Shown: positions 10,564-31,363, numbered from the stretch's first letter. The stretch: 64,000 nucleotides of DNA from Sulfurimonadaceae bacterium (GCA_041548245.1 JBFESZ010000001.1:57216-121215); one strand, 5' to 3'. Program-made: numbers and translations. Notes: generated by a model from the sequence alone, not told the origin.

Positions 10564-10628
10564 TCCTTTTTTTCGCAATTATAACAAGTTTGCTATAATG
10601 CGCTAAAAATAATATTAAAGATATATAT

Positions 10629-11459
10629 ATGACAGTTGCAATTATCGGACTTGGACTTATGGGTGGTTCTTTAGCCCTGGCTATTAAAACACTACCTATG
10701 ATCACTAATATTGTAGGATTTGACCATAATAAGGAACATGAAAAGGAAGCTTTAAAACTTCGCCTTGTGGACAGCATTGTCTCATTTGAAGAGGTCAAAC
10801 AAGCAGATATCATCATATTGGCGATCCCTGTGGATGGTATTATCGCCTGCCTTAAAGATTTGCAAGGAGTTCCGGCCGAAACAACAATCATTGACCTTGG
10901 TTCAACTAAGGAAAAGATAGTCCAGTCTATTCCTTCTTCTCTCAGAAAGAATGTTGTCGCCGCCCACCCTATGACAGGGACAGAGAAGTTTGGCCCAAGC
11001 GCTGCCTTGGAAGATCTGTACAGGGACAAAGTCGTTGTCTTATGTAACATGGAAGCTTCTGGAGAGCATCAACAAGAAACAGCCGTTCGACTCTTTTCAC
11101 AAATTCATATGAAACTTGTCTATATGAAAGCTCATGAGCATGACCTTCATGTTGCCTTCATCTCGCATATGCCGCACCTTATCTCCTACTCTTTGGCTAA
11201 TGCCGTTCTTAAGCATGAAGAGCATGAGAATATTTTAAACCTTGCAGCTGGAGGATTTCGTTCAATGAGCCGTTTGGCAAAATCTTCACCCAATATGTGG
11301 GGCGATATCTTCCGCCAGAACAAAACCCATCTTTTAGACTCCCTTAGCTATTTTGAGCAAGAACTGGCACAGATGAAAAAACTGGTTCAAAATGAAGAGT
11401 GGGATAAACTAGATACCAAGATGAAAGATGCCAATACTTTGCACGATATCTTAAAGTAA
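10629..11459 (+). CDS. tyrA: Prephenate dehydrogenase
   Basis: GLGLMGGS, DLGSTK, HPMTGTE, HD...A.ISH.PH, GGFRSMSRLA. Confidence 0.95.
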   Translation: MTVAIIGLGLMGGSLALAIKTLPMITNIVGFDHNKEHEKEALKLRLVDSIVSFEEVKQADIIILAIPVDGIIACLKDLQGVPAETTIIDLGSTKEKIVQSIPSSLRKNVVAAHPMTGTEKFGPSAALEDLYRDKVVVLCNMEASGEHQQETAVRLFSQIHMKLVYMKAHEHDLHVAFISHMPHLISYSLANAVLKHEEHENILNLAAGGFRSMSRLAKSSPNMWGDIFRQNKTHLLDSLSYFEQELAQMKKLVQNEEWDKLDTKMKDANTLHDILK

Positions 11460-11464
11460 CCGGC

Positions 11465-11752
11465 CTAGCCTGAATATGCACCTGTAGCTTGAGCCTTCGC
11501 ATTAAGTGCCGTAAACTCACTCAATGAACTGCTAAGCCCTTTATCTGTTGAACTTGCAGCGACATTGACAGATGCACCGCTTGATAGCTGTGCTTTATAG
11601 TTTTGAGCATCTCTTTTGCTTTGATTTGTAGCATCAGCTATCGAGTTTACAGCTTCAGTTGTCTTCTCTTCTGCCTGAGCTAGGGGATCAGGCCTTCCTA
11701 GCTGTACAGGAGATGGATAAGGGGATTGAAATACATAAGATTCTACTTTCAT
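11465..11752 (-). CDS. Hypothetical protein
   Basis: 95-aa ORF with AGGAG RBS; N-terminal FQSPYPSPVQLGRPDP. Confidence 0.7.
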   Translation of the reverse strand: MKVESYVFQSPYPSPVQLGRPDPLAQAEEKTTEAVNSIADATNQSKRDAQNYKAQLSSGASVNVAASSTDKGLSSSLSEFTALNAKAQATGAYSG

Positions 11753-11828
11753 ACTCTCCTCCTGATTATGACTATCATAACAAACATAAAAAAAGAGTTT
11801 GCTTTTGTTTTGATATTAAATAAAAATT

Positions 11829-13283
11829 TTACTCCTGCACCCTTTTGACCATCTCTTGCAGTTTTTTCTTGTCAACAGGATGACTGGCGCCCTCGTAGAT
11901 ATTCTCAGAAAGCTTTTTAACCATCTCTTCTACATCACCATCATTGCCCATATGACTCATCAACAGCTGTAGGACATCTTTTGACTCTTTAACGGATACA
12001 CTCTTTTTCTTCTCTTTCTTTAGCAGAGTTTTCCATGGAATCATAGAAAAAACAACCCCTAGTACCATACCGCTTACAAACAGGAGTATACCTTCTATAT
12101 ATGTCAATGAACTCTGCTCATCATCCTGTACGGTGTCAACTCTCTCTTCAGCCCGTGCTATCTTGAGCTCTTCTTTCATTGAAGACGACGGATTAAGGAC
12201 TTTAATACTTATAGGCTCTGTCTTGATCGTCTTGACAGTATCCGTCTTTACATCCATATACTTAAGCTCAAAAGAGGGGATAATAAAATCATTTTCAGCC
12301 ACAAGTGCCAACTTTTGGACAAAAGAACCGAAATATTTCCCCTCTTGAAGATAATGTGACGCCGTTGGATCTTCTTTAAAGACTTGTGCTCCATCAATGT
12401 GTATATCAAAAGCCTCTATGTCTTCAATATTGGCTTTTCCTTCAACTTTAAGCGTAACATTGACCGCTTCACCCGCATTGACCTCTCTTTGATTGACACT
12501 GATGTCGATATCCATCTCGCCCACAAGTGTAATCGCTTCAGGAAGCGCTTTGACCTCTATATCAAGTTCATTGGAAAAGACTGTTCTTGTCTTTGTCGTT
12601 GCCAGCCATGTACCCCAGTAGTCTTTTGATTGACTTCGCACTTTTACATCCCAGCGCAAGGGTCCTAACGAGAGTTTTCCACTCTGCTGTGCAGCCATAG
12701 CATACTGGTTCTTTCGTATGGCATACTCATCTTGTACAAAAGGTTTTCCTTTCTCTTCACTTTTTACCCAGATGTTTTTGTTCTCCGGCAAAGAGATCGA
12801 TTCAGCCAATGCCTCGATATTACGACGTACTTTAAAATCCACTTTCACCTCAAACGGTTCACCGACATAAACAGATTGTTTATCGGTCGCAAGCTTCACG
12901 ATAAAAGGATCATTCTTTGAAATCGCCATCTTCGAAACAGTAATGTTGATCGGATTGGTCATCTCCTCTTTGCCATTGACGATAACAGGAAACGGTTCAA
13001 TCACACAAGATTGTTCCGGCATAAACTCATACATCACCGAGTGTTCTTGAACACGTTTTCCATTGCTGAAAACCTCTTTACGGCTTTGCATCCTTCCTTC
13101 AATGCTGTAACCGCAAAGCTCATTCAACGGAGGGACTTCGATCTCACCTGCTCCCGAAATATGTAACGTCAGTGTAATACGTTCGCCTCTGGTTATCTGC
13201 TCTTTATCTACACTTACTCTGACCTCAGCCCATAAGGGAAGGCTGATTAAAAAAAACAGAATCATCTTACCAAGGTTTTTCAT
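11829..13283 (-). CDS. batD: BatD-family protein (set 1)
   Basis: Signal peptide from ATG 13283, repeated Ig-like V..GE modules, C-terminal TM helix; in a MoxR operon. Confidence 0.85.
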   Translation of the reverse strand: MKNLGKMILFFLISLPLWAEVRVSVDKEQITRGERITLTLHISGAGEIEVPPLNELCGYSIEGRMQSRKEVFSNGKRVQEHSVMYEFMPEQSCVIEPFPVIVNGKEEMTNPINITVSKMAISKNDPFIVKLATDKQSVYVGEPFEVKVDFKVRRNIEALAESISLPENKNIWVKSEEKGKPFVQDEYAIRKNQYAMAAQQSGKLSLGPLRWDVKVRSQSKDYWGTWLATTKTRTVFSNELDIEVKALPEAITLVGEMDIDISVNQREVNAGEAVNVTLKVEGKANIEDIEAFDIHIDGAQVFKEDPTASHYLQEGKYFGSFVQKLALVAENDFIIPSFELKYMDVKTDTVKTIKTEPISIKVLNPSSSMKEELKIARAEERVDTVQDDEQSSLTYIEGILLFVSGMVLGVVFSMIPWKTLLKKEKKKSVSVKESKDVLQLLMSHMGNDGDVEEMVKKLSENIYEGASHPVDKKKLQEMVKRVQE

Positions 13284-15138
13284 TTGTATCCTCTTCATGC
13301 TCACTCTCTTGTATTTTATACAGATGACCTTTTTGAGACTCCTGGATCATCTTGAACCATTTCTTTGCTTCAAGTTCACTCATTTTCTTCATATTGACCG
13401 GAACAGCTGTTCCGGCTTCCTGCTCGGACTCTGTCCCCTCTTCACCCTTGTTCTCTTGTGACTTCTGTTCCTGCTCTTCTTGATGTTGATTTTTTACTTT
13501 ATCTTGAACATCCTGCGCTTTGTCACTGCTCTTATTTTCTTCATCTTGATCAGGTTTTTGTTGTTTATCTTGCTTGGAAGTACTTCTATTCTCTTCTGTA
13601 TTATCCGTTCTCTGCTTATCTTTCTCTTTTGCTGAGCTCTTCTTCTGAGAACTTTTCTCTCCATTCGAATCATCCTTCTGTGAAGCCTCTTTACTTTGAT
13701 CAGACTTGTTGTCTTGATCTTTTGTATCTTTGTTATCTCTATTCTCTTGCTGCTCCTGCTCTTGTTCCAAGAGTTTTTTTACAGCCTCATAGTTCTCTCT
13801 TGTCTCTTTGTCTTCATGAAGTTCAAGTGCTTTTTCAAATGCTTGCAAAGCTTCTTTGTACTGCTTGAGTTTCACCAGTGTGTTGCCTCTGTTATGCAAG
13901 ACCTTTGCCTGGAACTCTGGCTTGTTTGATTGGATCTTATTATATACCTGGAGAGCTTTTTCATACTCATTCGATTTATAAAGGCTGTTGGCAAGATTAT
14001 AGTTTGCTTCAGAAGATTGTTCTGAAAATCTCTCATAGATAGAAGCACTTGTATTGTACTCTTTCTGTTCATAAGCCTCTTTTGCACTCCTTAGGTCTTT
14101 GAAGTCCAAAAGCCCTGCTTTGGCATCATCACCCCCTATGAAAACCAATCCTGCGATCAGAATCGTTTTGATCGTTCTTTGAGGTAATGATGAAAAAGCC
14201 AATAGAACAAAAAGTGTTGCCAGAGCCAAAGGGTAATAAAAGAGCTGTGTGTATTGAGGGATGGTCTCTTTTTTGAGCGTCGCTTTTTCTGTGATCGACT
14301 CGATCTCTTTTAGCATCGTGTTGATATCACCATCTCCCAATACAGATTCAATATAGACTCCGCCTGTCTGCGTGGCCAGAGTCTTGATCTGAGGGTTTAA
14401 TTTGGAGATTAAGATATTTCCATTTTGTTTGACAAACCCGCCTTCACTGTTTCGTACAGGGCTTCCCTTTGGAGACCCTATACCGATAATAAAGACTCTT
14501 AGGCCATTCTCTTTAGCCAACGCTATCTCTTTTTCAAACCCTGCACTGTCACCTCCGTCGGTAAAAAGCAGAAGGTTCTTCTGCGCGGCATGTTCAAGCA
14601 TACTGATAGCTGAAGCTAACATCGAATCAAGATGCGTTCCCTTTTCTGTGATATTGCCTGTACTCACCTTGGAGAGTAAAAAGGCCACTGAGCTATGATC
14701 AAAACTCAAAGGAGAGACGATATAGTCATGCTTGGCAAAGGCGAGTACACCGATGCGATTATGCGGAGCTTTTTTAATCAGCTCTATCGCTTTATTTTTA
14801 GCGAATTCAAGACGGTTGGGATACCTATCTTCCGCCTTCATCGAATCAGATATGTCAATACCAATCAAGATATCTGCACTTTTGGCTTCGACAACGACCT
14901 CTCCCTCCTTTATGACAGGCTGAGCCAGTGCGATGATCATAAACACAAAGGCAGTCAAATAGAGTGTATTTCTTGATGTTCTGCTTAGACTTTTACTCTC
15001 AGAGCGAAGTTTTTCTAGAACATCCGTCTCGAACATCGACCAGTTCTTTTTAGCACCCGTCATTATAAAATAAAAGAGTATCAAGGTCAGTGGCAGCAAC
15101 AAATAGATGAATAGTGGATATAAAAAGCTCATCCCCAT
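13267..15138 (-). CDS. VWA + TPR protein, BatB/BatC-like (set 1)
   Basis: MIDAS DISDS...TDGG, TPR YNLAN/HNRGN, Q/E/K-rich linker, C-terminal PW. Confidence 0.88.
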   Translation of the reverse strand: MGMSFLYPLFIYLLLPLTLILFYFIMTGAKKNWSMFETDVLEKLRSESKSLSRTSRNTLYLTAFVFMIIALAQPVIKEGEVVVEAKSADILIGIDISDSMKAEDRYPNRLEFAKNKAIELIKKAPHNRIGVLAFAKHDYIVSPLSFDHSSVAFLLSKVSTGNITEKGTHLDSMLASAISMLEHAAQKNLLLFTDGGDSAGFEKEIALAKENGLRVFIIGIGSPKGSPVRNSEGGFVKQNGNILISKLNPQIKTLATQTGGVYIESVLGDGDINTMLKEIESITEKATLKKETIPQYTQLFYYPLALATLFVLLAFSSLPQRTIKTILIAGLVFIGGDDAKAGLLDFKDLRSAKEAYEQKEYNTSASIYERFSEQSSEANYNLANSLYKSNEYEKALQVYNKIQSNKPEFQAKVLHNRGNTLVKLKQYKEALQAFEKALELHEDKETRENYEAVKKLLEQEQEQQENRDNKDTKDQDNKSDQSKEASQKDDSNGEKSSQKKSSAKEKDKQRTDNTEENRSTSKQDKQQKPDQDEENKSSDKAQDVQDKVKNQHQEEQEQKSQENKGEEGTESEQEAGTAVPVNMKKMSELEAKKWFKMIQESQKGHLYKIQESEHEEDTNEKPW

Positions 15139-16040
15139 CCCTTTTTTGAACGAATTACGAGGTATAAAAGAAGACTCATCAAAGAGACAAAAAGGAAATA
15201 GAGGTAATAATACGTTTTATGCAGATACTTTTCACCTTTTAACTCCGACTTTTCCAAGCGGTTAATTTCTTCATATACCCCTTCAAGCTGCTGTGCCGAA
15301 TAGGCGTAAAAATACCTACCACCCGTCTCCTCAGCAATAGCCGCAAGTGTTCCTTCTGAAAACTCTCCCGGACGACCGATTCCGATAGTATATATCTTTA
15401 CACCTTCTCTTTGTGCCAATGCAATAGCCGCGTCATAAGGGATATTGCCTGCTGTATTTTGCCCGTCAGTCAAGAGAATTGCTATTTTACTTTTGGCCTC
15501 ATTTTCCTGCATCAATGTCAATGACTGTGCAATTGCATCGTAGATAGCGGTATTCTTCCCTGCTACTCCAATATAGAGCTGGCGAAGCAGTTTTGAAAGA
15601 ATATGTTTATCATAGGTAATAGGGGAAGCAACAAAGGCGTAAGAACCAAAGACGATCATGCCCAGATTATCGTTGGTCCGTTTTTGAATAAAATCATCTA
15701 CGATATCCTGGACCACATTAAAGCGATTCTTTTGCAGGTTGTTTTCATCAAATCCCTGAATACGCATGGATTGGCTTGCATCAAGCAGTAAAACAATATC
15801 GTGCCCCTCTCGCGGGTCCAGTTCGATCTCTCTTTCACTGTAAGGCGATGCCAACGCGACAAGCAGTGTCACTATGCCAAGCCATTTTAAAAAGAACAGC
15901 AGATACGATGGCGTCATTGAAGAAGACCCCAATAATTCCATATGCGGGAAAAGAAGCGTCTCGTGACGTTGTTTACAATAGTAGGAACAAAGGATAAAGA
16001 GGAAGAGTAGAGCTAACAGATACGGAAACTCAAGATGCAT
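15129..16040 (-). CDS. batA: VWA domain protein, BatA-like (set 1)
   Basis: N-terminal BatA TM segment, DASQS MIDAS, TAIYDA, LLTDG. Confidence 0.88.
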   Translation of the reverse strand: MHLEFPYLLALLFLFILCSYYCKQRHETLLFPHMELLGSSSMTPSYLLFFLKWLGIVTLLVALASPYSEREIELDPREGHDIVLLLDASQSMRIQGFDENNLQKNRFNVVQDIVDDFIQKRTNDNLGMIVFGSYAFVASPITYDKHILSKLLRQLYIGVAGKNTAIYDAIAQSLTLMQENEAKSKIAILLTDGQNTAGNIPYDAAIALAQREGVKIYTIGIGRPGEFSEGTLAAIAEETGGRYFYAYSAQQLEGVYEEINRLEKSELKGEKYLHKTYYYLYFLFVSLMSLLLYLVIRSKKGWG

Positions 16041-16425
16041 CCAGAACCTCTAAGAATAGTCTGTAATATCCCAATGTCTCATCATCCAAAGGATTCACAT
16101 CCTTTTTATATTTGTATTGGTTTAAACGGCTATCAAGATTCTCAAGCATATCCACGGCTCTCTCATCTTCAGCCAAAAGCCTTCCGTAATAACTGATTTC
16201 GTACGCTGCTTCTTTTGCGTTCGACATGTCAATATTACGAAGCTTCTCAAGGTAGCTTTTGCGCAGGTTCTCACCTTTACTCCGTTGATATACTCTGAAT
16301 ATCCACAGTCCTAGTAGCGTAAGGATTAAAAGAAGGACCATACCTAAAGCTATCAGAAAATAGAGTGAGTAATCCGGGACTTCCACCAGAGGTTTGATAT
16401 CATGCAAAGGGATGTCTTTCATCAT
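16030..16425 (-). CDS. Small membrane protein of the MoxR/Bat operon (DUF4381-like)
   Basis: LHDIKP motif followed by one TM helix; between DUF58 and VWA genes. Confidence 0.7.
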   Translation of the reverse strand: MMKDIPLHDIKPLVEVPDYSLYFLIALGMVLLLILTLLGLWIFRVYQRSKGENLRKSYLEKLRNIDMSNAKEAAYEISYYGRLLAEDERAVDMLENLDSRLNQYKYKKDVNPLDDETLGYYRLFLEVLDAS

Positions 16426-17255
16426 ACGTTTCCTTCAAACAGCCGTCTTAACTTGACAATGGGAGCTTCATCCGTATATATCTTTACAAAACGGACTTGA
16501 TCCTTTCGCAGTCTTTCATATAGCCTATGATCATGCTCTGCGACCTTCGCCTCATAAGCCTTCATCGTAGAACCGTTGAAATCACCTTCAAGCTCTGCTC
16601 CGCTTTCAGGATCCTGCAGTGTAGAGAAGCCAAATGCAGGAGGATGCTCTTCCAAGCGGTCACGCACAATGATGGCAATGACTTCATGTTTACGAGCAAG
16701 TACCTTAAAGTCGGGAAGGTCAAAATAGTCTGCAATGACAATAATCAGTGATTTTCGTTTCAGACGCTTCATCAGATACGCTGTCATCTGCTTATAGTCT
16801 GCTTTTTTATGCAATGCGTCAAAATTCAAAATATCATTGACCAGGCTCTGTACGGCATGGATCTTCTTGGTAGGACGGTTTTCCTGGTAGAATGTATCAG
16901 CAAAGAGATAGGAGCTGAACAAATCACCGTTTCCGATCGCTGAAAACGAGAGCATAGCCGTGATCTCGGCAATAAGTTCCTGCTTGAACTTCTTTGAGCC
17001 AAAGTGCACTGAACCATTGAGCATGGCTGCCAATACAATATTGAGCTCACGTTCTTCTTTGAATACCTTGATATAGGGCTGCTGTTTCTTAGCCGTAATG
17101 TTCCAGTCTATATGTCGGATATCGTCTCCGGGCATATATTCCCGCAACTCTATAAAATCATAACCTTCTCCCTGAAAGATAGAAGGGTTGTTGCCAATAA
17201 GTTCAGAGAAGACCTGACGGCGGGCTCGAACCAATATCTTTTTCAGTTTTGACAT
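16422..17255 (-). CDS. DUF58 domain protein
   Basis: G.G.DF.ELREY.PGDDIRHIDWN.TA. Confidence 0.93.
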   Translation of the reverse strand: MSKLKKILVRARRQVFSELIGNNPSIFQGEGYDFIELREYMPGDDIRHIDWNITAKKQQPYIKVFKEERELNIVLAAMLNGSVHFGSKKFKQELIAEITAMLSFSAIGNGDLFSSYLFADTFYQENRPTKKIHAVQSLVNDILNFDALHKKADYKQMTAYLMKRLKRKSLIIVIADYFDLPDFKVLARKHEVIAIIVRDRLEEHPPAFGFSTLQDPESGAELEGDFNGSTMKAYEAKVAEHDHRLYERLRKDQVRFVKIYTDEAPIVKLRRLFEGNV

Positions 17256-17267
17256 AGGCTACTTTTC

Positions 17268-18215
17268 TTATGGTATTGCAACAGTCTGTACGATTTTATC
17301 GATCACCTCATCACTTGTGACCCCCTCTGCTTCGGCCTCGTATGAGAGAATGATACGGTGGCGCATCACCTCTTTGATGATGTAAGCGATATCAACAGGA
17401 GAGACATAGTCTTTTCCACGCAAGAATGCCATCGCTTTAACCGCTTTGAAAATATCAATACTCACACGAGGGCTCGCCCCAAAATGCAGATAATCAGCAA
17501 TATCATCCAGTCCATATGCCTTAGGATCACGCGTTGCCGATACCAGTTCGATCATGTACGTTTCCACTTCAGGATCCATATGCACAGCAGCAACCTCTTT
17601 TTTTAGCTCTTCCAACTCGGCAATGGAAATAACTGCATTGACTTTCTCATTGGTCTTGTTTGAGATGCGACGGGCGATCTCCAGTTCTTCCTCTTTCGTG
17701 TTATAGCCGACAACAAGTTTCATCATAAAACGATCCAGCTGTGCTTCAGGCAACTGATATACTCCCTCTTGCTCAACAGGGTTCTGTGTCGCCATAACAA
17801 AAAACGGAGGTTCAAGCTGAAAAGACTCTTCTCCGATGGTCACCTGCTTCTCCTGCATCACTTCAAGCAGAGCCGACTGAACTTTTGCCGGAGCACGGTT
17901 GATCTCATCAGCAAGCAAAAGATTAGTAAAGACAGGACCGTGCTTGATCTTGAACTCATTTTTTTGAGGGTCATAGATCTCGGCACCCAAGATATCAGAA
18001 GGAAGTAAGTCGGGTGTAAACTGTACCCTTTTAAAACCAAGTCCCAAAGCAGACGAGAGTGCTTTGACCGTTGTTGTCTTTGCTAATCCGGGAATACCTT
18101 CAATCAGTATATGGCCTTCGCATAAAAGTCCTATCAAAAGACCGTCTATCATCTTCTCTTGGCCAATAACAACTTTGGCTACCTCATTTTTAATAGCAAT
18201 GATTTTTTCATTCAT
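17268..18215 (-). CDS. moxR: MoxR-family AAA+ ATPase
   Basis: GIPGLAKT, RVQFTPDLLPSD, DEINRAPAKVQSALLE, ATQNPVEQEG.Y.LPEAQLDRF. Confidence 0.96.
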   Translation of the reverse strand: MNEKIIAIKNEVAKVVIGQEKMIDGLLIGLLCEGHILIEGIPGLAKTTTVKALSSALGLGFKRVQFTPDLLPSDILGAEIYDPQKNEFKIKHGPVFTNLLLADEINRAPAKVQSALLEVMQEKQVTIGEESFQLEPPFFVMATQNPVEQEGVYQLPEAQLDRFMMKLVVGYNTKEEELEIARRISNKTNEKVNAVISIAELEELKKEVAAVHMDPEVETYMIELVSATRDPKAYGLDDIADYLHFGASPRVSIDIFKAVKAMAFLRGKDYVSPVDIAYIIKEVMRHRIILSYEAEAEGVTSDEVIDKIVQTVAIP

Positions 18216-18341
18216 GTTATCTCTATCCTAACGCATCTTTTTATTCAAGATATTATAGCAGGTCAATATAAGTCTTCTTATGCCCTGCTCGATTTTGGGC
18301 AGATGCTATGTTCTTCATGTGTAAAAAAAGTGTGAACTCTC

Positions 18342-19454
18342 TCACAGCTTGGCCAAGGCACTCTTTTTAACCTCTGAAAGCACAATAGCGTCACCTTTAT
18401 ACACAGCGGCCTCCAACACTCCAATCTCTTTTGAAAACAGTCCCTTATCACATACAATCAAAAGTTCTAAAAGCTCCTTGGCCGTCTTAGCCTCTTTAAG
18501 TTTTTTGCCATTCTCTCTTCTTGGTGTCCTTTCTGGTAAACGCACCAGTTTTGCCACAACAAACCCGCAGATAAAGCTTAGCAGATAATAGACATACTCT
18601 GTATATACACTGATATCGATCTTCTGTGAAGGCAGGTCTACCTTATCGACAAGATCTTCACGCTGCATCCCCACCTTGTTGATGCTCACATGGATAGCCT
18701 TACTTTTCAAGACTTTCTCCTCTTGTGCCTCTAGATCAAAATATGGGATTGATATGGCAGGGATGACAAAATCATCTTGGGCTACAAAGGCAAAACGTTG
18801 TCTCCATGTCCCTGTATACCCCTGCTTGCCAAGAGCATACTCTTTTTCGGGTTCGTCACTGAAAACTTCAACCTTATCAATCTCAAACTTGATCGCTTCG
18901 AGTGCCTGAAGGTTTCCTTCCCCTTGGATAAAGACTTCCAAATGCACCGGTTCATAAGCAGAGGCCGTCTGGATATCATTCTTGACCTCCATACTCAACC
19001 TACCGGTCAAAGAGGACTCCGTCGGCATGACAGTGACGGGAATCGGGTCTATCTTGGCTCGCTCTTTTTGCATTTCAAGATCATTGACATTATCCCGTCC
19101 AATGATCACATTATTGATCGCACTTTGTGTGGTAAAGAGCATCGTCGGTTCAAGCTTGAGACTGAACTCTCCTGCTTCTTTGGCAAAAAGCAGATACTCA
19201 TAGGTAATAATCTGAATGTCACCCTCAAAATGTTTAGTCTCAGAGAGCAGTTTAAAGCCAAATCCCGAATCAGCCGGGGGAATGAATTCAACCTCATCAT
19301 TCTTGCCATCTTTATCAAATCGGCACTGCATCGTTAAGCTTGTCGCCTGATTAAGATAGATCTGCTTGTCTCTTAATTGCACATCCCATTCATAAGTGCT
19401 TTTCGCCCATAGACTAAGACCCAACAGTAAAAGGCTACCAAGGATTTTCTTCAT
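18342..19454 (-). CDS. BatD-family protein (set 2, shorter)
   Basis: Signal peptide, A.EPV...V...GEGNL module homologous to set 1, C-terminal TM helix. Confidence 0.75.
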   Translation of the reverse strand: MKKILGSLLLLGLSLWAKSTYEWDVQLRDKQIYLNQATSLTMQCRFDKDGKNDEVEFIPPADSGFGFKLLSETKHFEGDIQIITYEYLLFAKEAGEFSLKLEPTMLFTTQSAINNVIIGRDNVNDLEMQKERAKIDPIPVTVMPTESSLTGRLSMEVKNDIQTASAYEPVHLEVFIQGEGNLQALEAIKFEIDKVEVFSDEPEKEYALGKQGYTGTWRQRFAFVAQDDFVIPAISIPYFDLEAQEEKVLKSKAIHVSINKVGMQREDLVDKVDLPSQKIDISVYTEYVYYLLSFICGFVVAKLVRLPERTPRRENGKKLKEAKTAKELLELLIVCDKGLFSKEIGVLEAAVYKGDAIVLSEVKKSALAKL

Positions 19455-21003
19455 TCACACTCCTTTCATTAATCAGTTCATACTGCTTGTAGGAGAGGCC
19501 TGATTGAGATGGATTGAAACTCACCTGCCCCTCATTCTTGACTTTTTTCCCCTTGGTTTTGGAACTTGCACCTGCCTGTGCTGAGACTTTCATATTGGAA
19601 CTTCCTGCACCTTTTTTCTTCTGCCCATCTTTTTTTGCACTTTTTGCCGTGACACTCTCATTTTTCTTTTTTCCTTCTTGCTGTCCTGTTTGTAAGCCTT
19701 CATGCTTCTTTGCATCTGAGATATATAAAAGGTTCTCATCTGTCTCTTTGTCATAAGCGATGACGAGACTCTTCTTGTAGGCGACTTTTGCCTCTTCATA
19801 CATCTCAAGACGGACATAGGCATTGCCAAGATTGTGAAATACCTTTGCTTTCAGCGAAGCATCCCTTGAGCGGACTGCTTTATAAGTATCAATTGCTTCT
19901 TCATACTGTCCTGCTCTATAATAGGCATTGCCAAGGTTGTAATGGTCTTCTGGAGAACGCATGGACCGTGCTTTAAAATGTTTGAGTGCCTCAAGATGCT
20001 TTTTCTCTGCATAAGCTTCATCTCCGGCACTTTGTGTCGAGAACTCTCTCATATCCGCTTGTGCGTTTATCCCCAGTATGACAGCGAGAAAGAGCACCGC
20101 TTTAAATATATGCGTATGAAGTTTTGTCACGCCTAAAAGAAAAGACAACAATGCCAAGAAAAGTGGATAGTAAAAAAGTTCCTGATACATCATCAGATCA
20201 CTGCTTGAGATCTTTTTTTCTCTTGAATCCAGCCAAGCAGATATCTCCTGAACGGCATTTTGACCGGCTTCGATAAAGACACCATCGGTCGCCTGTGACA
20301 AGCTTTGAGCATTCGCATTTTTTGAACTTATCACCAGGTGATCTGCACTGTCTTTAAGCCATTGCCCATCTTTGTCCTTCAGGCGCGCACCAGAGTTTGT
20401 CGCCATCATAACCACGCTTATGCTTATGCCGTGATCATCCGCATAAGCGATCTCTTTGGAAAAATCTTTTGCATCTCCACCATCACCGACAATAATAAGG
20501 TTTTTGGTCTTTAGAGTAGAGAGTTTTGTACTCAGCTCCAAGACTGAGGCCATATTAGTACCCTTTGTGATGACCAGTTCAGGTGAGATCAGATCAAGCT
20601 GATGCGAAAGCAGTTCATCATCCGAGCTCAAAGGCGAGAGTATGATAGCGTTTGTCGTAAATCCCAGTAATGCGAAACGTTCATGTACACGTTCTTGGAT
20701 CAGAGCCTTTATAAAAGCCTTCGAAGCCTCCAGTCGGGTTGGTTGAATATCATCAGCCTGCATAGAGTAGGAAAGGTCCAAAGCGATAACCACTTCCGAA
20801 CCTTCAAACTCCTGCTTGATCACGCCCTTGTCCAGAACAGGACGTGCCAAGGATACAATCATCATGATCAGTGAAAGGTACAGGAATATAAGTTTCTGTC
20901 TTGTCTGGCTCGCTATAGCATGCTCTTTTTTCTTCTTTCGATACAGCATCATCAACAACAGCGCCAGAATCATCCAAAAATAGTGAGGGGATAAAAAACT
21001 CAT
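19435..21003 (-). CDS. VWA + TPR protein, BatB/BatC-like (set 2)
   Basis: DLSYS MIDAS, GDGG, TPR YNLGN/HNLGN, K/S/G-rich tail, C-terminal PW. Confidence 0.85.
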   Translation of the reverse strand: MSFLSPHYFWMILALLLMMLYRKKKKEHAIASQTRQKLIFLYLSLIMMIVSLARPVLDKGVIKQEFEGSEVVIALDLSYSMQADDIQPTRLEASKAFIKALIQERVHERFALLGFTTNAIILSPLSSDDELLSHQLDLISPELVITKGTNMASVLELSTKLSTLKTKNLIIVGDGGDAKDFSKEIAYADDHGISISVVMMATNSGARLKDKDGQWLKDSADHLVISSKNANAQSLSQATDGVFIEAGQNAVQEISAWLDSREKKISSSDLMMYQELFYYPLFLALLSFLLGVTKLHTHIFKAVLFLAVILGINAQADMREFSTQSAGDEAYAEKKHLEALKHFKARSMRSPEDHYNLGNAYYRAGQYEEAIDTYKAVRSRDASLKAKVFHNLGNAYVRLEMYEEAKVAYKKSLVIAYDKETDENLLYISDAKKHEGLQTGQQEGKKKNESVTAKSAKKDGQKKKGAGSSNMKVSAQAGASSKTKGKKVKNEGQVSFNPSQSGLSYKQYELINERSVNEENPW

Positions 21004-21893
21004 GCTACTCCCCTAAAACGTGTTGACATATAATAGACAAGCAAGAAAAATCCCATCAATACGGCATACTGATAAAAATACTCTTTTTTCAAAAACTGCT
21101 GACTCTTTATCTCAGAGCTCTCCATCTTGTTGATATCCTCATAGACTTCGTTCAACTCTTCTTCATTTTTGGCAGCATAAGACTTTCCTCCCGTTTGATC
21201 CGCAACTTCTTTCAAAAGGGCCGGGTTAAAGTCATCGCCTACCGCTATTGTATAGATTTTGATGCCTCTTTGTTGAGCCAGCTCGACAGCATCTTTTGGC
21301 GAGATTCTTCCGCTGTTATGCTCACCATCTGAAAGCAGAACAATCACCTTGCTCTTGGCTTTGGAAAAAGAAAGCGCGCGAATCGCCTGTTCAATCCCCT
21401 CACCAATTGCCGTATTATCTCCCGCCATACCTGTCTGAAGATAAGAGACCATCTCTGATACAATATCTTTCTCATAGGTCACAGGCGAAGCGATAAAGGC
21501 ATAATCACCAAATAGCACAACCCCGACATTATCGTTGAGACGTTTGGCAATAAACTGACGAACAACCCGCTGCACTGTCTCAAAACGCGTCTCTCTTTTT
21601 TCACTAAGACCCGAAGCACGCATCGAACCGCTTGCATCAATGGAAAGGACGATATCTATCCCTACTCTGTTCAACGGGTTATTCTTGTCAATCAATACGG
21701 GTGAAGCCAAAGCCGTAATCAGAGAAACAGCTATGAGTACTTTTAGCAGGTCCTGAACCCAAAAGCGTGGCCGCTTAAGGGCAAAAAGCTCCAGATGTAC
21801 AAAGTTTCGTTTGATAATCACTTCGCGACACTTATACAAACAATAGATTATGGGCAATAATAAAAGAAATACAGAAGCATATTCAAAATTCAT
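21000..21893 (-). CDS. VWA domain protein, BatA-like (set 2)
   Basis: DASGS MIDAS, TAIGEG, LLSDG; paralogous to 15129-16040. Confidence 0.87.
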   Translation of the reverse strand: MNFEYASVFLLLLPIIYCLYKCREVIIKRNFVHLELFALKRPRFWVQDLLKVLIAVSLITALASPVLIDKNNPLNRVGIDIVLSIDASGSMRASGLSEKRETRFETVQRVVRQFIAKRLNDNVGVVLFGDYAFIASPVTYEKDIVSEMVSYLQTGMAGDNTAIGEGIEQAIRALSFSKAKSKVIVLLSDGEHNSGRISPKDAVELAQQRGIKIYTIAVGDDFNPALLKEVADQTGGKSYAAKNEEELNEVYEDINKMESSEIKSQQFLKKEYFYQYAVLMGFFLLVYYMSTRFRGVA

Positions 21894-21978: not shown

Positions 21979-22007
21979 TTGACAATTCCCAGCCTTTATC
22001 CTATAAT
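21979..22007 (+). promoter_or_regulatory. Consensus sigma70 promoter of the tRNA operon
   Basis: TTGACA (21979-84), 17 bp, TATAAT (22002-07), then a GC-rich discriminator. Confidence 0.8.
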
Positions 22008-22041: not shown

Positions 22042-22117
22042 GTCTTGTTAGCTCAGCCGGTAGAGCATCTCACTTTTAATGAGGTGGCCGTAGGTTCGAA
22101 TCCTACACAGGACACCA
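22042..22117 (+). tRNA. tRNA-Lys(TTT)
   Basis: Cloverleaf; acceptor GTCTTGT/ACAGGAC, anticodon loop CTTTTAA, GTTCGAA T-loop, encoded CCA. Confidence 0.96.
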
Positions 22118-22122
22118 TTTTT

Positions 22123-22197
22123 GGCCCCATCGTCTAGCGGTTAGGATCCATGGTTTTCATCCATGTTACCGGAGTTCGAGTCTCCGTGGGGTCACCA
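22123..22197 (+). tRNA. tRNA-Glu(TTC)
   Basis: Cloverleaf; anticodon stem CATGG/CCATG with loop TTTTCAT, GTTCGAG T-loop, encoded CCA. Confidence 0.96.
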
Positions 22198-22958: not shown

Positions 22959-24353
22959 ATGCTGAACAAGAATCAAAAGAACAATATACTGATCATTGAT
23001 GACAACCCTAAAAACATTCAGCTTGCTGCCAACGTTCTTAAAACAACTGATCTTTTTAATATCTTCTTTGCCACAAGTGGTGAAGAGGGGATCAAGCAAC
23101 TTGAAAAAAAAGAGTACTCCTTGGTACTCCTTGACATCAATATGCCAGGAATCGACGGATATCAAACCGCTGATCTCATCAAAAAAAACCCAAGAACAAA
23201 CAATATCCCTATTATTTTTTTATCCGCCAATGCGAATCCGGAAAGTATCAGTAAAGGATTTGAACATGGCGGTAAAGACTATATTACAAAACCCTTTCAA
23301 CAGTTGGAACTTATCCATCGTGTCAAAACTCATGTCGAACTTTATCTGGCAAAAAAAGAGCTACAGTCTAAAGTAAAAGAATCACATGTCCTTTTGGAAC
23401 AATACAAAGAGGCGATAGATGTGAGTTCTCTGGTCTCAAAAACTGACCTTAAGGGTATTATCACCTATGTCAATGAGCCCTTTTGCAAGATATCTCAATA
23501 CTCAAAAGAGGAACTTTTAGGAAAGTCCCACAGGATCATCCGTCATCCAGATATGCCCAAAGAGGTCTTTGTACAGATATGGGACACTATCACACACAAG
23601 AAAATCTGGAAAGGGACTATACAAAACCAGGCTAAAGATGGGAGTTCTTACTTCGTCGAAGCAACCATTATCCCTATTTTGAACCACCATGACGAGATCA
23701 TTGAATATATCAGTGTACGTACCGACATCACTAAACAGATAGAAGCCAAAGAGCGCATTATCAGCTCTCAAAAAGAGATCCTTTACACGCTGGGCGAGAT
23801 GGGTGAGCTTCGATCTAAAGAGACAGGTGATCATGTCAACCGTGTTGCACTTTACTCCGAACTTTTGGCCAAACATTATGGTCTTCAAGACCAGGAGGTC
23901 AATATGCTAAAGATGGCGAGTCCCATGCATGATATCGGCAAGGTCGCCATCTCCGACTCTATATTGCTCAAACCCGGCAAATTGAGTCTTGAAGAGTTTG
24001 AAGAGATGAAAAAGCACTCCGTCATAGGCTATGAGATCTTTAAAAAATCCACCCATAGACTTCTGCAAATGGCTGCGACCATCTCCCATGAGCACCATGA
24101 AAAATGGGATGGAACAGGATATCCACGGGGGTTAAAAGGCGAAGAAATTTCAATCTGCGGACGTATTACAGCTGTTGCCGATGTCTTTGATGCACTTAGC
24201 CATGACAGAGTATATAAAGAAGCATGGCCACTTGAAAAGGTGATTGACTTTATGAAAGAAGAGAGCGGAAAGTCCTTTGAACCAAGACTTGTAGAGATTC
24301 TACTTGAGAACATCGATGCCATTATCGATATCAAAAACAGATACAACAAATAG
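22959..24353 (+). CDS. Response regulator REC-PAS-HD-GYP (c-di-GMP phosphodiesterase)
   Basis: LLDINMP REC; PAS/PAC; HDIGK, HHEKWDGTGYP, DVFDAL. Confidence 0.92.
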   Translation: MLNKNQKNNILIIDDNPKNIQLAANVLKTTDLFNIFFATSGEEGIKQLEKKEYSLVLLDINMPGIDGYQTADLIKKNPRTNNIPIIFLSANANPESISKGFEHGGKDYITKPFQQLELIHRVKTHVELYLAKKELQSKVKESHVLLEQYKEAIDVSSLVSKTDLKGIITYVNEPFCKISQYSKEELLGKSHRIIRHPDMPKEVFVQIWDTITHKKIWKGTIQNQAKDGSSYFVEATIIPILNHHDEIIEYISVRTDITKQIEAKERIISSQKEILYTLGEMGELRSKETGDHVNRVALYSELLAKHYGLQDQEVNMLKMASPMHDIGKVAISDSILLKPGKLSLEEFEEMKKHSVIGYEIFKKSTHRLLQMAATISHEHHEKWDGTGYPRGLKGEEISICGRITAVADVFDALSHDRVYKEAWPLEKVIDFMKEESGKSFEPRLVEILLENIDAIIDIKNRYNK

Positions 24354-24356
24354 ATT

Positions 24357-24926
24357 ATGAAACACAAACTCGTAGCCTATTTTATCATCCTTCTTGTACT
24401 CTTTCTCTCTGTCACAGTAATGCTTATACCTACCCTTTTTACGAAAGGCATTTCACGAGTTGAACTAAAACAGGACCTGGACCTTGAACTGATTTTGGAC
24501 AAAAAACATAATATCGAGCTGGTTTTCTTCGGTTATGCTGGCTGCAATAAGATCTGTACTCCTAGACTTGAAGCCTTGGGGGAATGGTATGCTCAGCTTT
24601 CTGATGAAACGCAAAAATATTTTGGCCTCAAGTTTTTGGACATCTCCATGCGTAAGGATACATCGCTTCCTGAGAGTTTTGCAAAAGCCTTTCATGAAGA
24701 GTTTGAAGGCGTCTTTTTGGATAAAGATGTTGTAAGGCACTACACCAAAGCTTTTCGCGTCTATTTCTCCCCTTCACTCCTTGATAAAAACGAAATAGAC
24801 CATACTTCACATCTCTATCTCGTAAAAAGAGACAGCAAAGGGAAACAGCTCCGTTTTATATATACCGCCTACCCCTATGACTTTAAACAGATACAATCAG
24901 ATATACAGGAACTGATCCATGAATAA
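24357..24926 (+). CDS. Sco1/SenC-family membrane-anchored copper chaperone
   Basis: N-terminal TM helix, [11 protein letters not shown] (CxxxC), distal IDHTS.LYL His. Confidence 0.82.
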
Positions 24927-26976
24927 ACTGCTCTATCTACTTTTTTACAAACCAAGATTTTCCCAACTGCGGCAGGATGAGTATGAACGTTCCGACAAGT
25001 TCATGCTTAAGCTGATCGCTTTTCACTGGCTTCTTGTCGCTCTTGGTGGTATGTTTCTGTTCAATGAATACTATCTGGGAAACATAGGCGGGGCCCTACT
25101 TTTTTTTATAAGCTGGTATGCCTATAAATATTATAAGGGTAGTCAGCTTTTTAGGAATCTTGTAGCCATCGTCCTGCTGACATTTTCTATTATCATGATC
25201 CAGCAGAGCTTTGGACGACTGGAGATGCACTTTCATATCTTTGTCGCCCTCTCCTTTCTCATCATTTATAGAGATATGAAAAACATTACGGCAGGGGCTG
25301 TCTATATCATCATCCATCACCTCATCTTCAACTCTTTGCAAGAACATAATGTTCAGCTGCTTGATACACCTGTCATCGTGTTCAACTATGGCTGCGGTCT
25401 TGATATCGTTCTACTTCATGCCTTCTTTGTTATCTTCGAATGGTTTGTCCTGTCTAAAATGGTCATACTTATGGAAGATCGTTTCATGGAACTCATCCGA
25501 ACAAGAGAGGCCCTTCAATCCGTCAATACAAACCTTGAAAGCCTAGTATCCATCCGTACACAAGAGCTCGAAGAAGCCAAGAGTGAAGCAGAAAAGGCCA
25601 ACAAACTAAAATCAGAGTTTTTAGCCAATATGAGCCATGAGATCCGTACCCCGATGAACGCTATCATCGGTTTTACCGATCTTCTGGAGGAGAACGTAAA
25701 AGAGCCTACTAACATCAACTATGTCCAATCCGTTAAAAATAGTGGGAAGCTCCTTCTTACCATCATCAACGATATACTGGACCTCTCTAAAGTTGAAGCA
25801 GGTAAGATGCATATTGAACTGGCACCTACCAACCTGCAAGACATTGCAGACGAACTCTCTCCCATCTTTATGCTTAAAGCGCGTTCAAAAGGTCTTGATT
25901 TTAAAATCGAAACAGAAGACAATCTAAATGCTCCCCTTATGCTGGATGAAGTCCGTCTGCGACAGATTCTCTTCAATCTGATCAGCAATGCCATAAAGTT
26001 TACCCATGAAGGTCATGTATATGTGAACTTTAAAACCGTGGACCTTGAAACGCATACTGACCTTATCATCACCGTCGAAGATACCGGTATAGGTATCCCT
26101 GATGATCAGCAAGAGAGTATCTTCAGCGCCTTTATACAACAAAAAAACCAGATGACAAAAACTTACGGAGGAACCGGACTCGGCCTGGCAATCGTTAAAC
26201 AGTTACTTGATCTCATGAATGGTCATATCAAGCTTGAAAGTGAGGTTAATAAAGGTTCAATCTTTACCATCACCCTTAAAAATATTTCCAAATCGACTCA
26301 CAAAAGAAAAGATTCGGTCAAACCAAATCAAGTGGTATTTGAACCTGCTACGATAGTGATTGCTGATGATATTGAACTGAATCGTACACTGATTTGTGCT
26401 TATCTGGAAAAGATGCCCTTTAAGCTGTTAATAGCAACCAATGGTGAAGAGACCTTGAGACTTATCGAAGAGCACAGTGTTGACCTTGTTTTGACTGATA
26501 TCAAGATGCCGATAATGGATGGTTACGAATCGACTAAGGTTATCAAATACAAATATCATATACCTGTCATTGCAATTACCGCTTCCGTTCTAATCAGCGA
26601 ACAGAACAAGGAGAATGAGATCTTCGATCTACTGTTGGAAAAACCCTTATCCTCAGAGAAACTCATGCAGGCACTTTCTGAGTTCATTAATCATACCACT
26701 GTCATTGATACACAATTTCCGGATGAAGAGATACAGATCAAGAGTATCGAACTGACTCCATACCTATCATCCTGTCCACAACTGGCCAATGCCCTTGTCA
26801 GTGCCAAAGAGGATGGCGATATGGATGCGATTGACACGTTTGCAAAAATGCTTGAAGAGTGTTCTCAAAACGAACAGATTAAAGAGTTTCATCTCATTGC
26901 CGAACAGCTCACCCATGCAATAGAGAGCTTTGATATAGAGACATGTCAAAACCTGCTTAGCAAGTTTAAACTATAG
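24919..26976 (+). CDS. Hybrid histidine kinase with His-rich polytopic membrane input domain, HisKA, HATPase and REC
   Basis: About 6 TM helices; [36 protein letters not shown]. Confidence 0.92.
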
Positions 26977-29803: not shown

Positions 29804-30058
29804 TTATTCACTTATCTCAACGCCTTTGTCTTTTGCGATCTCATTTAACAGTCCACCCATCTTCTTCGCAGCATCTATCATCTCATCGTCACTATGCTCC
29901 TGCAGTATCATTCTGGCAATCTCCGGTAGGACTTTGAGGTAAACCTCTTTGGCATCTTCATAGCTGAGTTTTCCCTCTTGAATATTCCCTGCTGTCGAAT
30001 GCAGTACCATTGCCAGACCCAGAAAAAGTTCTTGACTATTAAGTTCTATGCTTTCCAT
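29804..30058 (-). CDS. Hypothetical protein
   Basis: 84-aa ORF with AAGGA RBS. Confidence 0.65.
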   Translation of the reverse strand: MESIELNSQELFLGLAMVLHSTAGNIQEGKLSYEDAKEVYLKVLPEIARMILQEHSDDEMIDAAKKMGGLLNEIAKDKGVEISE

Positions 30059-30112
30059 ATCTTTCCTTTAGGAACTAAGTTTGCTTGGCATTATACTAAA
30101 AAGGAGAGTCCA

Positions 30113-31363
30113 TTGAAGCGTATAGATGAGTTACCCTTAAAAATTAAGCTCTATATCCTTCTTGGCCTTCTTATTATGGGTCTTTGCGTTATCGGTGCCA
30201 TAGGCTATCTTAACCTGCACAAGATGAAAAAGAATATGGACTCGCTCTACTTTGGAAGCTATATTCCCGTGACAGAACTCAGCCGTATACAAAACATCTA
30301 TAACAGAGATATCAGCTTTGTCTTCCATCAACTTAAAAACAGTGCCATCCTTCCTCTTGAAGTAGCTGAAAGGATCTCATTAAGCCGAAAAGAGATCTTG
30401 GAAACCTGGTCTTCATATAAATCGCATTTCAAACGTAATGATGAACTTGAGTATGTCAAATACGCGGACCAGGAACTACGTCACTCCAGTAACTATCTCA
30501 GACGTTTAAGTATTGCCATTTCTGAACTCGATACGCAAGGCCTCTCTCGACTCTCTAGCGATATCCTCACAAAAAACGTAACGCATATGGATGAAGTCAT
30601 TAACAAAATCATCTCCTATGAAAAAGAGATTGCACAGTATGAACGCAAGAACTTTTTGAATACCTATGATGAGACGATTTATCAATTGATCGCTATATTG
30701 ATCATCATCATAACAGCCGCAGTCATGATTATCGCCCCGATCTTTCAAAGTATTCAAAACAACGAACTCTCTTTAATCAACACGTCTAAAAAACTTCAGG
30801 TGGCCAATAAGAAACTGGAGACGGCTTCCATAACAGACCCGCTGACAGAGCTTTACAATCGACGCTATTTCAATCTTGTCTATAACCGGGAACTCACACG
30901 CTGTATCCGTGAAAACCAAAGTATGGCTTTTATGATGCTCGATATTGACTACTTTAAAGGATACAATGACTTCTACGGTCACCTGCAAGGTGATGCTACC
31001 CTCAAAGCAGTTGCCAAGGTAATGAAAAGCGCACTTCAACGACCTGGAGACTATCTTTTTCGTCTGGGGGGCGAGGAGTTCGGAATATTGATCTCCAATA
31101 TTACGGAAGAGAATGCCTACCACATGGCTGAAAAAATTCGCCAAAGTATCTACAGGCTACAGATCGAACACAAAAAAAGCAAGACATCCGATTATCTATC
31201 AACATCCATTGGTGTAGTCGTACTACGGCCCGATAAGAAAATCGATCCGGAAAGTATCATCAGCCGTGCAGATGACAACCTTTATGCAGCCAAGGAGGAG
31301 GGAAGAAACCGGGTTATCCAAACATGCCTGCAAAACTGTGAAGAGCTTAGCCAGTCTGCCTGA
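30113..31363 (+). CDS. Diguanylate cyclase with a periplasmic four-helix-bundle sensor
   Basis: TTG start at 30113 after AAGGAG; 2 TM helices; DPLT.LYNR, DIDYFK.YND, RPGD I-site, GGEEF. Confidence 0.9.
   Translation: MKRIDELPLKIKLYILLGLLIMGLCVIGAIGYLNLHKMKKNMDSLYFGSYIPVTELSRIQNIYNRDISFVFHQLKNSAILPLEVAERISLSRKEILETWSSYKSHFKRNDELEYVKYADQELRHSSNYLRRLSIAISELDTQGLSRLSSDILTKNVTHMDEVINKIISYEKEIAQYERKNFLNTYDETIYQLIAILIIIITAAVMIIAPIFQSIQNNELSLINTSKKLQVANKKLETASITDPLTELYNRRYFNLVYNRELTRCIRENQSMAFMMLDIDYFKGYNDFYGHLQGDATLKAVAKVMKSALQRPGDYLFRLGGEEFGILISNITEENAYHMAEKIRQSIYRLQIEHKKSKTSDYLSTSIGVVVLRPDKKIDPESIISRADDNLYAAKEEGRNRVIQTCLQNCEELSQSA

Follow-up and report, generated by a model that had tools for sequence, protein, structure and literature searches.

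The closest described precedent for the system considered here is RegB-SenC-RegA (PrrB-PrrC-PrrA, Rhodobacter), in which a gene of the Sco family shares an operon with a polytopic membrane kinase and a response regulator. According to the account in PMC9147068, senC always shares a transcript with regA, regB or both, and the periplasmic copper-binding domain of SenC/PrrC has long been suspected of informing the kinase. A predicted operon of the same outward plan lies at 22959..26976 in a 64,000-nt stretch of a Sulfurimonadaceae bacterium (GCA_041548245.1, contig C1; this whole stretch is the window of the present study), where a short Sco protein is encoded between a response regulator with a predicted cyclic di-GMP (c-di-GMP) phosphodiesterase output and a hybrid histidine kinase headed by an unnamed six-helix membrane domain. 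Our analysis of related genomes supports well a functional coupling of Sco to this membrane domain, and we suggest, tentatively, that the two may comprise a sensory module with copper as its cofactor.

The window locus stands outside the RegB-SenC-RegA group, as its membrane domain, its regulator and its kinase class all differ. The original prediction had not referred to this precedent. The membrane domain matches no family, the GGxxNPF quinone motif of RegB is not seen in it by eye, and the kinase is of the hybrid type, whereas the regulator is an HD-GYP enzyme without the DNA-binding domain of RegA. No NCBIfam model of RegB or RegA is found among the best 25 matches listed. Furthermore, the pairing with Sco follows here a modular input domain, which is carried also by chemoreceptors, GGDEF/EAL enzymes and PP2C proteins.

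Several membrane receptors and metal sites invite comparison. In the ethylene receptors ETR1 and SynEtr1 an intramembrane copper, held in the N-terminal helices and supplied by a dedicated transporter, binds the gaseous ligand, and the ethylene-binding domain consists of three helices with Cys/His copper ligands on helix 2. In its working the module proposed here would come nearest to this receptor; it would be alike in placing an intramembrane copper cofactor, delivered by a copper-trafficking protein, in the N-terminal helices of a kinase-type receptor, and would be unlike ETR1 in its six helices, its cluster of four to five His with Glu and Gln, its dispensable cysteine (kept in 83/147), the absence of a Pfam match and a periplasmic Sco as the supplier. 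The CuB site of haem-copper oxidases is membrane-embedded and all-histidine, with an adjacent HH pair on one helix; the putative site considered here would share the all-histidine character, the HH pair and the Sco-type supplier, but the domain has no COX1 match, is no longer than 200 residues, gives no sign of haem and stands in a signalling, not a catalytic, context. MHYT domains have been proposed to bind copper through conserved His/Met, and to our knowledge no MHYT or MASE family is paired with Sco. As with MHYT and MASE, we deal with a polytopic N-terminal input domain common to kinases, chemoreceptors and c-di-GMP enzymes; unlike them, it carries the motifs ExHFH, HH, Q and H and gives no Pfam match at E<=10. 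As regards Sco as a supplier, the copper site of the cbb3 oxidase depends on a Sco-type chaperone, as stated in PMC9147068. The diguanylate cyclase ImcA (PA1851) is described in PMC10904736 as controlled through its membrane helices by the metal-binding partner IsmP. Like ImcA and the membrane parts of class III adenylyl cyclases, the domain studied here is predicted to be a six-helix bundle N-terminal to a cyclase or other signalling output, but those proteins have neither the His cluster nor a Sco partner, and the fold match to them is in the range of unrelated bundles.

Pairing of Sco with the sensor domain

The sensor domain corresponds to residues 1-200 of the window's kinase (24919..25518, + strand). 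Its genomic neighbourhood was followed in two samples. In the first, 401 Campylobacterota genomes were searched with the domain, which gave 13 positive genomes with 15 copies, and the neighbours were classified by BLASTP and Pfam; Sco is encoded directly beside the sensor gene in 11 of the 14 loci with neighbouring sequence and in the window (12/15). The second is a species-representative set, consisting of the best 80 of at least 545 relatives found with the pattern [RLK]IExHFH[IV]F, where Sco was counted as adjacent if it lay no more than 250 nt from the sensor gene and matched, at E<=1e-5, a hidden Markov model (HMM) built from 12 partner Sco proteins; this holds for 62 of the 80 loci. Related genomes are not independent and the two samples overlap (for instance, L020 = L041, L027 = L049 and L029 = L091), so that the counts are not additive.

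Adjacent Sco is seen in 25/36 loci of Campylobacterota, 22/26 of Gammaproteobacteria, all four of Balneolales/Bacteroidota, 8/9 of Leptospirales/Spirochaetota, the single one of Bacteriovoracaceae and one of two in both the unnamed and the unclassified Pseudomonadota groups. Sorted by the output that the sensor domain drives, it accompanies 41/51 chemoreceptors (MCP), 13/16 kinases, 7/8 GGDEF-EAL proteins and the one PAS-SpoIIE protein, and is missing beside the three PAS-GGDEF proteins and one truncated gene. Thus the pairing tracks the input domain and not the output. In 55 of the 80 loci Sco stands directly upstream on the same strand, frequently with overlaps of 4 or 8 nt. Clustering of the genes around the 80 loci places Sco in 59 of them and the next family in six, which leaves Sco as the sole widely shared neighbour; no third conserved gene, such as PCuAC, CopC/D or a cytochrome, came out of this comparison, with the runner-up at 6/80. 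The original prediction had asked how often homologues of the membrane domain sit beside sco genes, and the association is confirmed over several phyla.

Among the loci that are negative by the rule, weaker Sco matches occur in L090 (E 3e-5), L092 (8e-5) and, divergently, L043 (1.5e-4), and in L072 the upstream side is off the contig. No residue differences were seen between sensors with and without adjacent Sco. In some GGDEF-EAL-type loci (L045, L048, L051 and L053, and also L024 and L026) a gene for a periplasmic binding protein of the ABC_sub_bind family (PF04392) precedes Sco, a lineage-specific arrangement found in 6/80 loci.

In three assemblies that encode two sensors, a separate Sco accompanies each of them (L035 with L076, L046 with L079, L082 with L087). 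The genome of the window's own bacterium (2.16 Mb) contains exactly two PF02630 matches, each located beside one of exactly two copies of the sensor domain. The second copy, on contig C36 (L022; 7442-9697 on the - strand and 10159-13320 on the + strand), belongs to a sensor-PAS-PAS-GGDEF protein encoded divergently some 460 nt from a 262-aa Sco, which heads a COX1-COX3 cluster. A similar layout is seen in L043, with the weak Sco match 435 nt upstream on the opposite strand. In open-access full texts and bioRxiv, subscription journals being outside the search, we found no paper in which a Sco protein accompanies such a membrane domain of a chemoreceptor or kinase.

The partner Sco proteins

The window's Sco/SenC-type protein (24357..24926, + strand; 189 aa) is recognised by the Pfam model SCO1-SenC (PF02630) with 49.8 bits, against a cut-off of 22.8, over residues 52-160. 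It carries the C63-x3-C67 motif as CNKIC (24543..24557, + strand) and the distal His149 (24801..24803, + strand), the third canonical copper ligand, and its basic N-terminus is succeeded by a hydrophobic stretch (residues 7-28), for which the positive-inside rule alone would predict an orientation with the thioredoxin-like domain outside the cytoplasm. The Sco with a putative membrane anchor, an intact CNKIC and the distal histidine, as originally read from the translation, was thereby recovered.

When this protein is compared with 60 other sensor-adjacent Sco proteins, all 61 begin with a hydrophobic segment and all keep G59, C63, C67 and H149, that is, the whole copper triad; in an alignment of 68 rows (A3) the same four are the sole invariant positions. 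A profile made from this alignment matched 15 PDB sequences, all of them Sco (Thermus, Bradyrhizobium, human, yeast, Streptomyces, Bacillus), the best at E 2.5e-32. The partner proteins constitute a short divergent subfamily, with 44-53 bits on the Pfam model versus 100-136 for canonical Sco elsewhere in Campylobacterota. The distal histidine of Sco is a copper ligand that thiol chemistry does not require. Sco/SenC is presented in PMC9147068 as a periplasmic copper-binding protein required for cbb3 oxidase assembly, and the same source notes that Sco proteins, besides being copper carriers, can serve as thiol-disulfide oxidoreductases.

Conservation and predicted structure of the sensor domain

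Residues 1-200 of the kinase match no family in Pfam at E<=10 or in NCBIfam at E<=1 and no PDB sequence at E<=10; MHYT, MASE and other named membrane sensor models are therefore also without a match at the same Pfam and NCBIfam thresholds, and none of the 25 commonest families of the 80 representatives falls on the sensor region. The original remark that this domain could not be assigned to a named family thus stands. At the same time the domain is abundant: a word-indexed search returned 166 proteins at E<=1e-3 out of 990 candidates, and exhaustive phmmer gave 1,818 clusters (at 50% identity) at E<=1e-3, 469 at <=1e-10 and 71 at <=1e-30. In each of the best 150 phmmer representatives it starts no later than residue 52, and no natural Sco-sensor fusion was found among them, longer proteins not having been searched separately. 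The outputs of the 80 representatives comprise MCPsignal (36), HisKA (25), SpoIIE (4), GGDEF (2), EAL (2) and HD_5 (1), and in the Campylobacterota loci it forms the N-terminal part of hybrid kinases, of chemoreceptors and of GGDEF-EAL, PAS-GGDEF and PAS-SpoIIE proteins. Hence it is not specific for kinases but modular, and is commonest on chemoreceptors.

Conservation was followed in 120 close homologues, in the query with 149 diverse representatives, and in an alignment of 139 diverse sequences (A1); the 80-locus set was left aside for the ExHFH motif, as its search pattern fixes E102, H104 and H106. Among the close homologues H104, H133, H134, C159 and H167 occur in all 120, H106 in 114 and H36 in 113. 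The query and diverse representatives retain E102 in 149/150, H104 in 150/150, H106 in 144/150, H134 in 147/147, Q141 in 147/148 and H167 in 145/145, with somewhat lower figures for H133 (133/147), Y157 (129/145), G158 (128/146) and H36 (120/150), and a much lower one for C159 (83/147). In A1 G99, H104, H134, Q141 and H167 are invariant, and D26, G74, I94, I101, E102, F105, H106, F108, Y117, D119 and V171 reach 90% or more. The histidines to which attention had been drawn are therefore conserved in close and diverse sets far beyond chance, and four of the five His-bearing strings are hallmarks of the family. The window's protein has the features that we propose for a Sco-partnered His-cluster family, i.e. 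six helices, invariant G99, H104, H134, Q141 and H167, and an adjacent short Sco.

The YGCG loop, which had been singled out together with the histidines, is present (F155-N-Y-G-C159-G160, 25381..25398, + strand, periplasmic just ahead of helix 6 on the predicted topology), but it is not a family-wide trait, since 64/147 diverse members have T, S, H or another residue in place of C159, and only the close Sulfurimonas-type subfamily keeps this cysteine throughout (120/120). A cysteine kept in only 83/147 cannot be the essential target of Sco, and C159 was ruled out as a thiol-disulfide target in any general mechanism; the lack of an invariant sensor cysteine argues as well against a purely thiol-disulfide role of Sco on this domain.

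AlphaFold2 models residues 1-200 as a six-helix bundle (pLDDT 95.3, pTM 0.90) with helices at 15-48, 52-72, 76-96, 101-117, 120-142 and 161-199 and a short hairpin within the 143-160 loop. From the charge distribution we infer that the N-terminus and the turns 73-75 and 118-119 are cytoplasmic and that 49-51, 97-100 and 143-160 are periplasmic, a topology which would put HisKA in the cytoplasm, as required. On this topology the E102-M-H104-F-H106 motif (25222..25236, + strand) would stand at the start of helix 4, its E102, H104 and H106 being 1-5 residues away from the periplasmic end, and the polar stripe H133-H134...N138...Q141 (25315..25341, + strand) in the outer half of helix 5, with Q141 at the periplasmic end and H134 two turns below it (8 residues from the end), while H167 (25417..25419, + strand) would be found in helix 6, six residues in from its periplasmic end. 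H134, N138 and Q141, as also E102 and H106, follow i/i+4 spacing, so that each set would occupy one helix face, and the whole arrangement appears compatible with a putative polar pocket in the outer leaflet.

Structural comparison gave little to hold on to. Foldseek against the PDB returned nothing at E<=1e-3 (best E 0.98); VIA-align put ImcA first (8wcn_B, Z 12.0, rmsd 3.4, 178 aligned), followed by the mammalian adenylyl cyclases 6r3q_A (Z 11.5) and 8sl3_A (Z 11.1), with 168-188 residues aligned at 7-10% identity, Z values below about 13 being common for unrelated helical bundles. Language-model features pointed to generic MASE-like neighbours at 0.90-0.94, a range that unrelated sequences also reach. 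Prediction of a complex of the sensor domain with Sco scored 0.03, 0.51 and 0.01 in runs without controls and is counted neither way.

The operon and its surroundings

The three genes of the operon are co-directional and tightly coupled, with a gap of 3 nt (24354-24356) between the first two and an overlap of 8 nt (24919-24926) between the last two, the open reading frame (ORF) calls agreeing exactly with the original description. The first gene (22959..24353, + strand) encodes a 464-aa response regulator with Response_reg at 10-123 (E 9.3e-28), PAS_9 at 159-259 (2.5e-15) and HD_5 at 285-443 (1.3e-28), and its translation displays the HD (MHDIGK), HHE (HEHHEKW) and GYP (GTGYPRG) motifs, so the earlier reading of it as an intact REC-PAS-HD-GYP protein is borne out; the closest NCBIfam model, NF053512, gives 170.5 bits, under its cut-off of 400. 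The third gene (24919..26976, + strand) encodes the 685-aa sensor kinase, which is a hybrid one by its HisKA (231-295), HATPase_c (343-454) and Response_reg (479-586) domains.

The link of kinase and regulator is a recurrent one. A REC-PAS-HD-GYP regulator adjoins five of the seven kinase-type loci of the Campylobacterota sample (the window, L018, L021, L028 and L029) and is found also in L032-L040, L066 and L091 of the wider set, with the window's regulator-Sco-kinase order retained in L032-L039. The kinase ends in a conserved helical tail of about 95 residues (26677..26973, + strand), in which the motifs G633-D, F641-A, S670-F-D and C676 can be recognised and which has no Pfam match. An alignment of the TorS model as far as residue 684 had suggested to us a histidine phosphotransfer (Hpt) domain in this tail; this was rejected, there being no Hpt match in Pfam on residues 591-685 at E<=10 and no conserved histidine among 114 close homologues (H658 25%, H666 8%). 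As no Hpt is recognisable in cis, phosphotransfer from the kinase to the regulator is suggested by adjacency only, and it may go straight from HisKA or through an unlinked Hpt.

Upstream, tRNA-Lys(ttt) and tRNA-Glu(ttc) are located at 22042-22197, the operon beginning about 760 nt later, and a perfect (12/12) sigma-70 consensus promoter at 21979-22007 precedes both tRNAs, all of this falling inside the gap of 1,065 nt ahead of the HD-GYP gene. Oxidase genes are absent from the other 54 ORFs of the window by a Pfam scan, as had been claimed for cytochrome c oxidase, and the four COX1 matches of the genome are all on other contigs (C36, C92, C2 and C31, the window being on C1). The only family in the window named after copper is Cu-oxidase_4 (PF02578; 62674-63435, + strand), 36 kb from the operon; this YfiH/PgeF family is not known as an established cuproenzyme.

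Some other genes of the window deserve mention. Two tandem Bat-like clusters (11829-21893, - strand) are divergent from the operon and upstream of it, in the order BatD, vWA-TPR, vWA, DUF58 and MoxR AAA_3, then an unmatched ORF, vWA-TPR and vWA; in L030 and L031, which belong to another family, a pair of Sco and sensor-chemoreceptor genes likewise stands divergent beside MoxR-DUF58. Signalling genes are dense (29978-31363, 46107-49516, 54468-55724 and 805-2888) and encode a cyclase of the 4HB_MCP-GGDEF type, a PAS-containing hybrid kinase accompanied by a regulator of the OmpR type, a protein resembling EAL and a second pair of OmpR-type regulator and kinase. At 7814-9375 (- strand) a sulfite-oxidase-type molybdoenzyme (Oxidored_molyb and Mo-co_dimer) is followed by a 103-aa ORF with no Pfam match, with a LysR regulator divergent from the enzyme gene, and at 60432-62588 (- strand) a 718-aa protein joins DinB_2, FGE-sulfatase and methyltransferase domains, which is the architecture of OvoA-type ovothiol (histidyl-cysteine sulfoxide) synthases.

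Discussion

The pairing described above is good evidence that Sco and the sensor domain are functionally coupled. As for the nature of this coupling, we tentatively favour a two-protein sensory module in which Sco loads copper into the His cluster as the sensing cofactor, a proposal that seems to us nearly as probable as its contrary. Sco would be tethered to the membrane with its domain on the periplasmic side, and the sensor would present, in those halves of helices 4-6 that lie in the outer leaflet, the cluster of E102, H104, H106, H133/H134, Q141 and H167; with its intact Cys-Cys-His triad Sco would load copper into this cluster in the manner in which Sco/SenC proteins do it for membrane-embedded oxidase copper sites. 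The copper centre may then respond to O2 or redox state, NO, sulfide or a similar small ligand, and the ligand or redox change would be relayed by helix 6 to the signalling helix and on to HisKA of the hybrid kinase, which would control the adjacent REC-PAS-HD-GYP regulator and hence c-di-GMP hydrolysis. Elsewhere the same module would drive chemoreceptors, GGDEF/EAL enzymes or PP2C phosphatases. Directly observed are the arrangement of the genes, their domains, the conservation and the pairing across phyla; in this scheme we infer the topology, the physical contact, the copper as cargo, the signal sensed and the phosphotransfer to the regulator.

Copper loading seems the most economical reading because the copper triad of Sco, including a histidine dispensable for thiol chemistry, is never lost, and because no cysteine of the sensor is universally conserved. 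It is economical also because Sco/SenC serves membrane-embedded oxidase copper sites from the periplasmic side, as set out in PMC9147068. The named hosts are largely sulfur oxidisers and aerobic or microaerobic bacteria of marine or fresh waters, for example Sulfurimonas, Sulfuricurvum, Thiomargarita, Thiodiazotropha, Thiomicrorhabdus, Marinobacter, Leptospira and Balneolales; with chemoreceptors as the commonest output, this makes gradients of O2/redox or of sulfide a plausible signal.

Several observations weigh against the loading of copper by a dedicated Sco. By our rule 18 of the 80 sensor genes have no adjacent Sco and keep the same invariant residues. H104 and H106 are at i/i+2 on a helix and could both face one point only if this helix were irregular or the site lay at a dimer interface. 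In seven of the ten sensor-positive Campylobacterota genomes (G301, G267, G316, G245, G166, G074 and G285) the short Sco linked to the sensor is the only PF02630 match, so that it may also, or mainly, serve a respiratory oxidase; of the other sensor-positive genomes two have an extra canonical Sco, and G367, whose sensor has no Sco neighbour, has a single Sco of a 266-aa frame on another contig. The original notion of a Sco dedicated to the kinase thus gains from the strong gene pairing, and for those seven genomes "dedicated" may be too strong a word. Finally, Sco proteins can be thiol-disulfide oxidoreductases too, according to PMC9147068.

The same pairing, together with the copper triad kept in 61/61 partners, would be expected if Sco were itself a periplasmic copper detector, a co-receptor whose docking in the holo or apo form, or whose transient hand-over of copper, switches the output, the module then reporting copper availability or toxicity. 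We regard this as unlikely, though worth serious consideration. An invariant His/Glu/Gln cluster predicted inside the bilayer exceeds the need of a docking surface, the known periplasmic copper sensors use soluble periplasmic domains, and for hosts that are mainly gradient-dwelling respirers taxis to O2 or sulfide would be the more obvious need. On the other hand, with chemoreceptors in the lead among the outputs (36/80), chemotaxis away from copper has been described in bacteria (PMC10579534), and the pair of ImcA and IsmP, which reads iron according to PMC10904736 and whose six-helix member ImcA gives the best fold match (Z 12.0), offers a precedent for an accessory pair that reads a metal.

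The respiratory chain enters if the module is a redox relay of the PrrB-PrrC-PrrA or RegB-SenC-RegA type, where Sco would serve or monitor a terminal oxidase and report copper flux or thiol redox state, so that electron-transport activity is what is read. The seven genomes in which the sensor-linked Sco is the sole Sco match speak for such a relay, as does the paralogue in the window's own genome, whose sensor-PAS-PAS-GGDEF gene is divergent beside the sco-COX1-COX3 cluster. Yet among the 34 genomes of the window's family Sco was found in 8/8 sensor-positive and 8/26 sensor-negative ones, while 18/34 have no Sco match at all, i.e. the presence of Sco follows the sensor and, assuming that all of these bacteria respire oxygen, not respiration. 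The partner Sco proteins belong, moreover, to the low-scoring short subfamily (44-53 bits versus 100-136 for canonical Sco), and neither the membrane domain nor the regulator is related to RegB or RegA; we therefore hold this explanation improbable.

About as improbable, in our opinion, is a His cluster whose cofactor is not copper but b-type haem, Fe, Zn or Ni, or which forms a proton- or ion-sensing network, with Sco as a thiol-disulfide oxidoreductase or assembly helper. Pairs of histidines at equal depth on different helices (H106, H134, H167) could ligate haem in the predicted bundle, and C159 is constant (120/120) in the close Sulfurimonas-type subfamily; the pairing with Sco holds, however, in lineages where this cysteine is replaced (64/147 diverse members), His149 of Sco, a copper ligand unneeded for thiol chemistry, is present in 61/61, and no haem-handling gene recurs beside the pair in the 80 loci. 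The resemblance of Sco to thiol-disulfide oxidoreductases noted in PMC9147068 would suit this possibility. That the adjacency is functionally meaningless, by chance or by hitch-hiking of two membrane-protein genes, is scarcely credible, for nothing specific favours it beyond the 18/80 loci without the neighbour, both Sco matches in 2.16 Mb of the window's own genome stand beside its two sensor genes, and the pair occurs in at least five named higher taxa with frames overlapping or near-touching while all other neighbours vary.

Coming back to copper loading by Sco, one may go further and suggest a widespread six-helix receptor family with a CuB-like all-histidine copper centre installed by its cognate Sco, which would sense O2, NO, sulfide or ligands resembling ethylene by means of copper and have interchangeable outputs in chemotaxis, two-component signalling, c-di-GMP turnover and PP2C phosphatases. 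This bolder version we consider possible, if rather doubtful. In our view the locus belongs with those membrane sensors that depend on a cofactor and have a maturation or partner protein of their own, the copper chemistry and the signal being the conditional part, and it defines an unnamed, widely distributed family.

Most polytopic input domains of bacterial receptors have no assigned ligand or mechanism, and for one of them, a large family, a concrete hypothesis can be offered here that names its partner protein, the five residues that never vary and the metal. If the cofactor is indeed copper, it would be the second membrane receptor for gas or redox state with a metal cofactor after the ethylene receptor of plants and cyanobacteria. 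Sco would gain a second major class of clients beyond the assembly of respiratory oxidases, and its recurrent coupling to signalling membrane domains would bear on the question why senC/prrC sits in the RegB/RegA operon. For the organisms themselves, the module would explain how many sulfur-oxidising and marine bacteria are steered in gradients of oxygen and sulfide.

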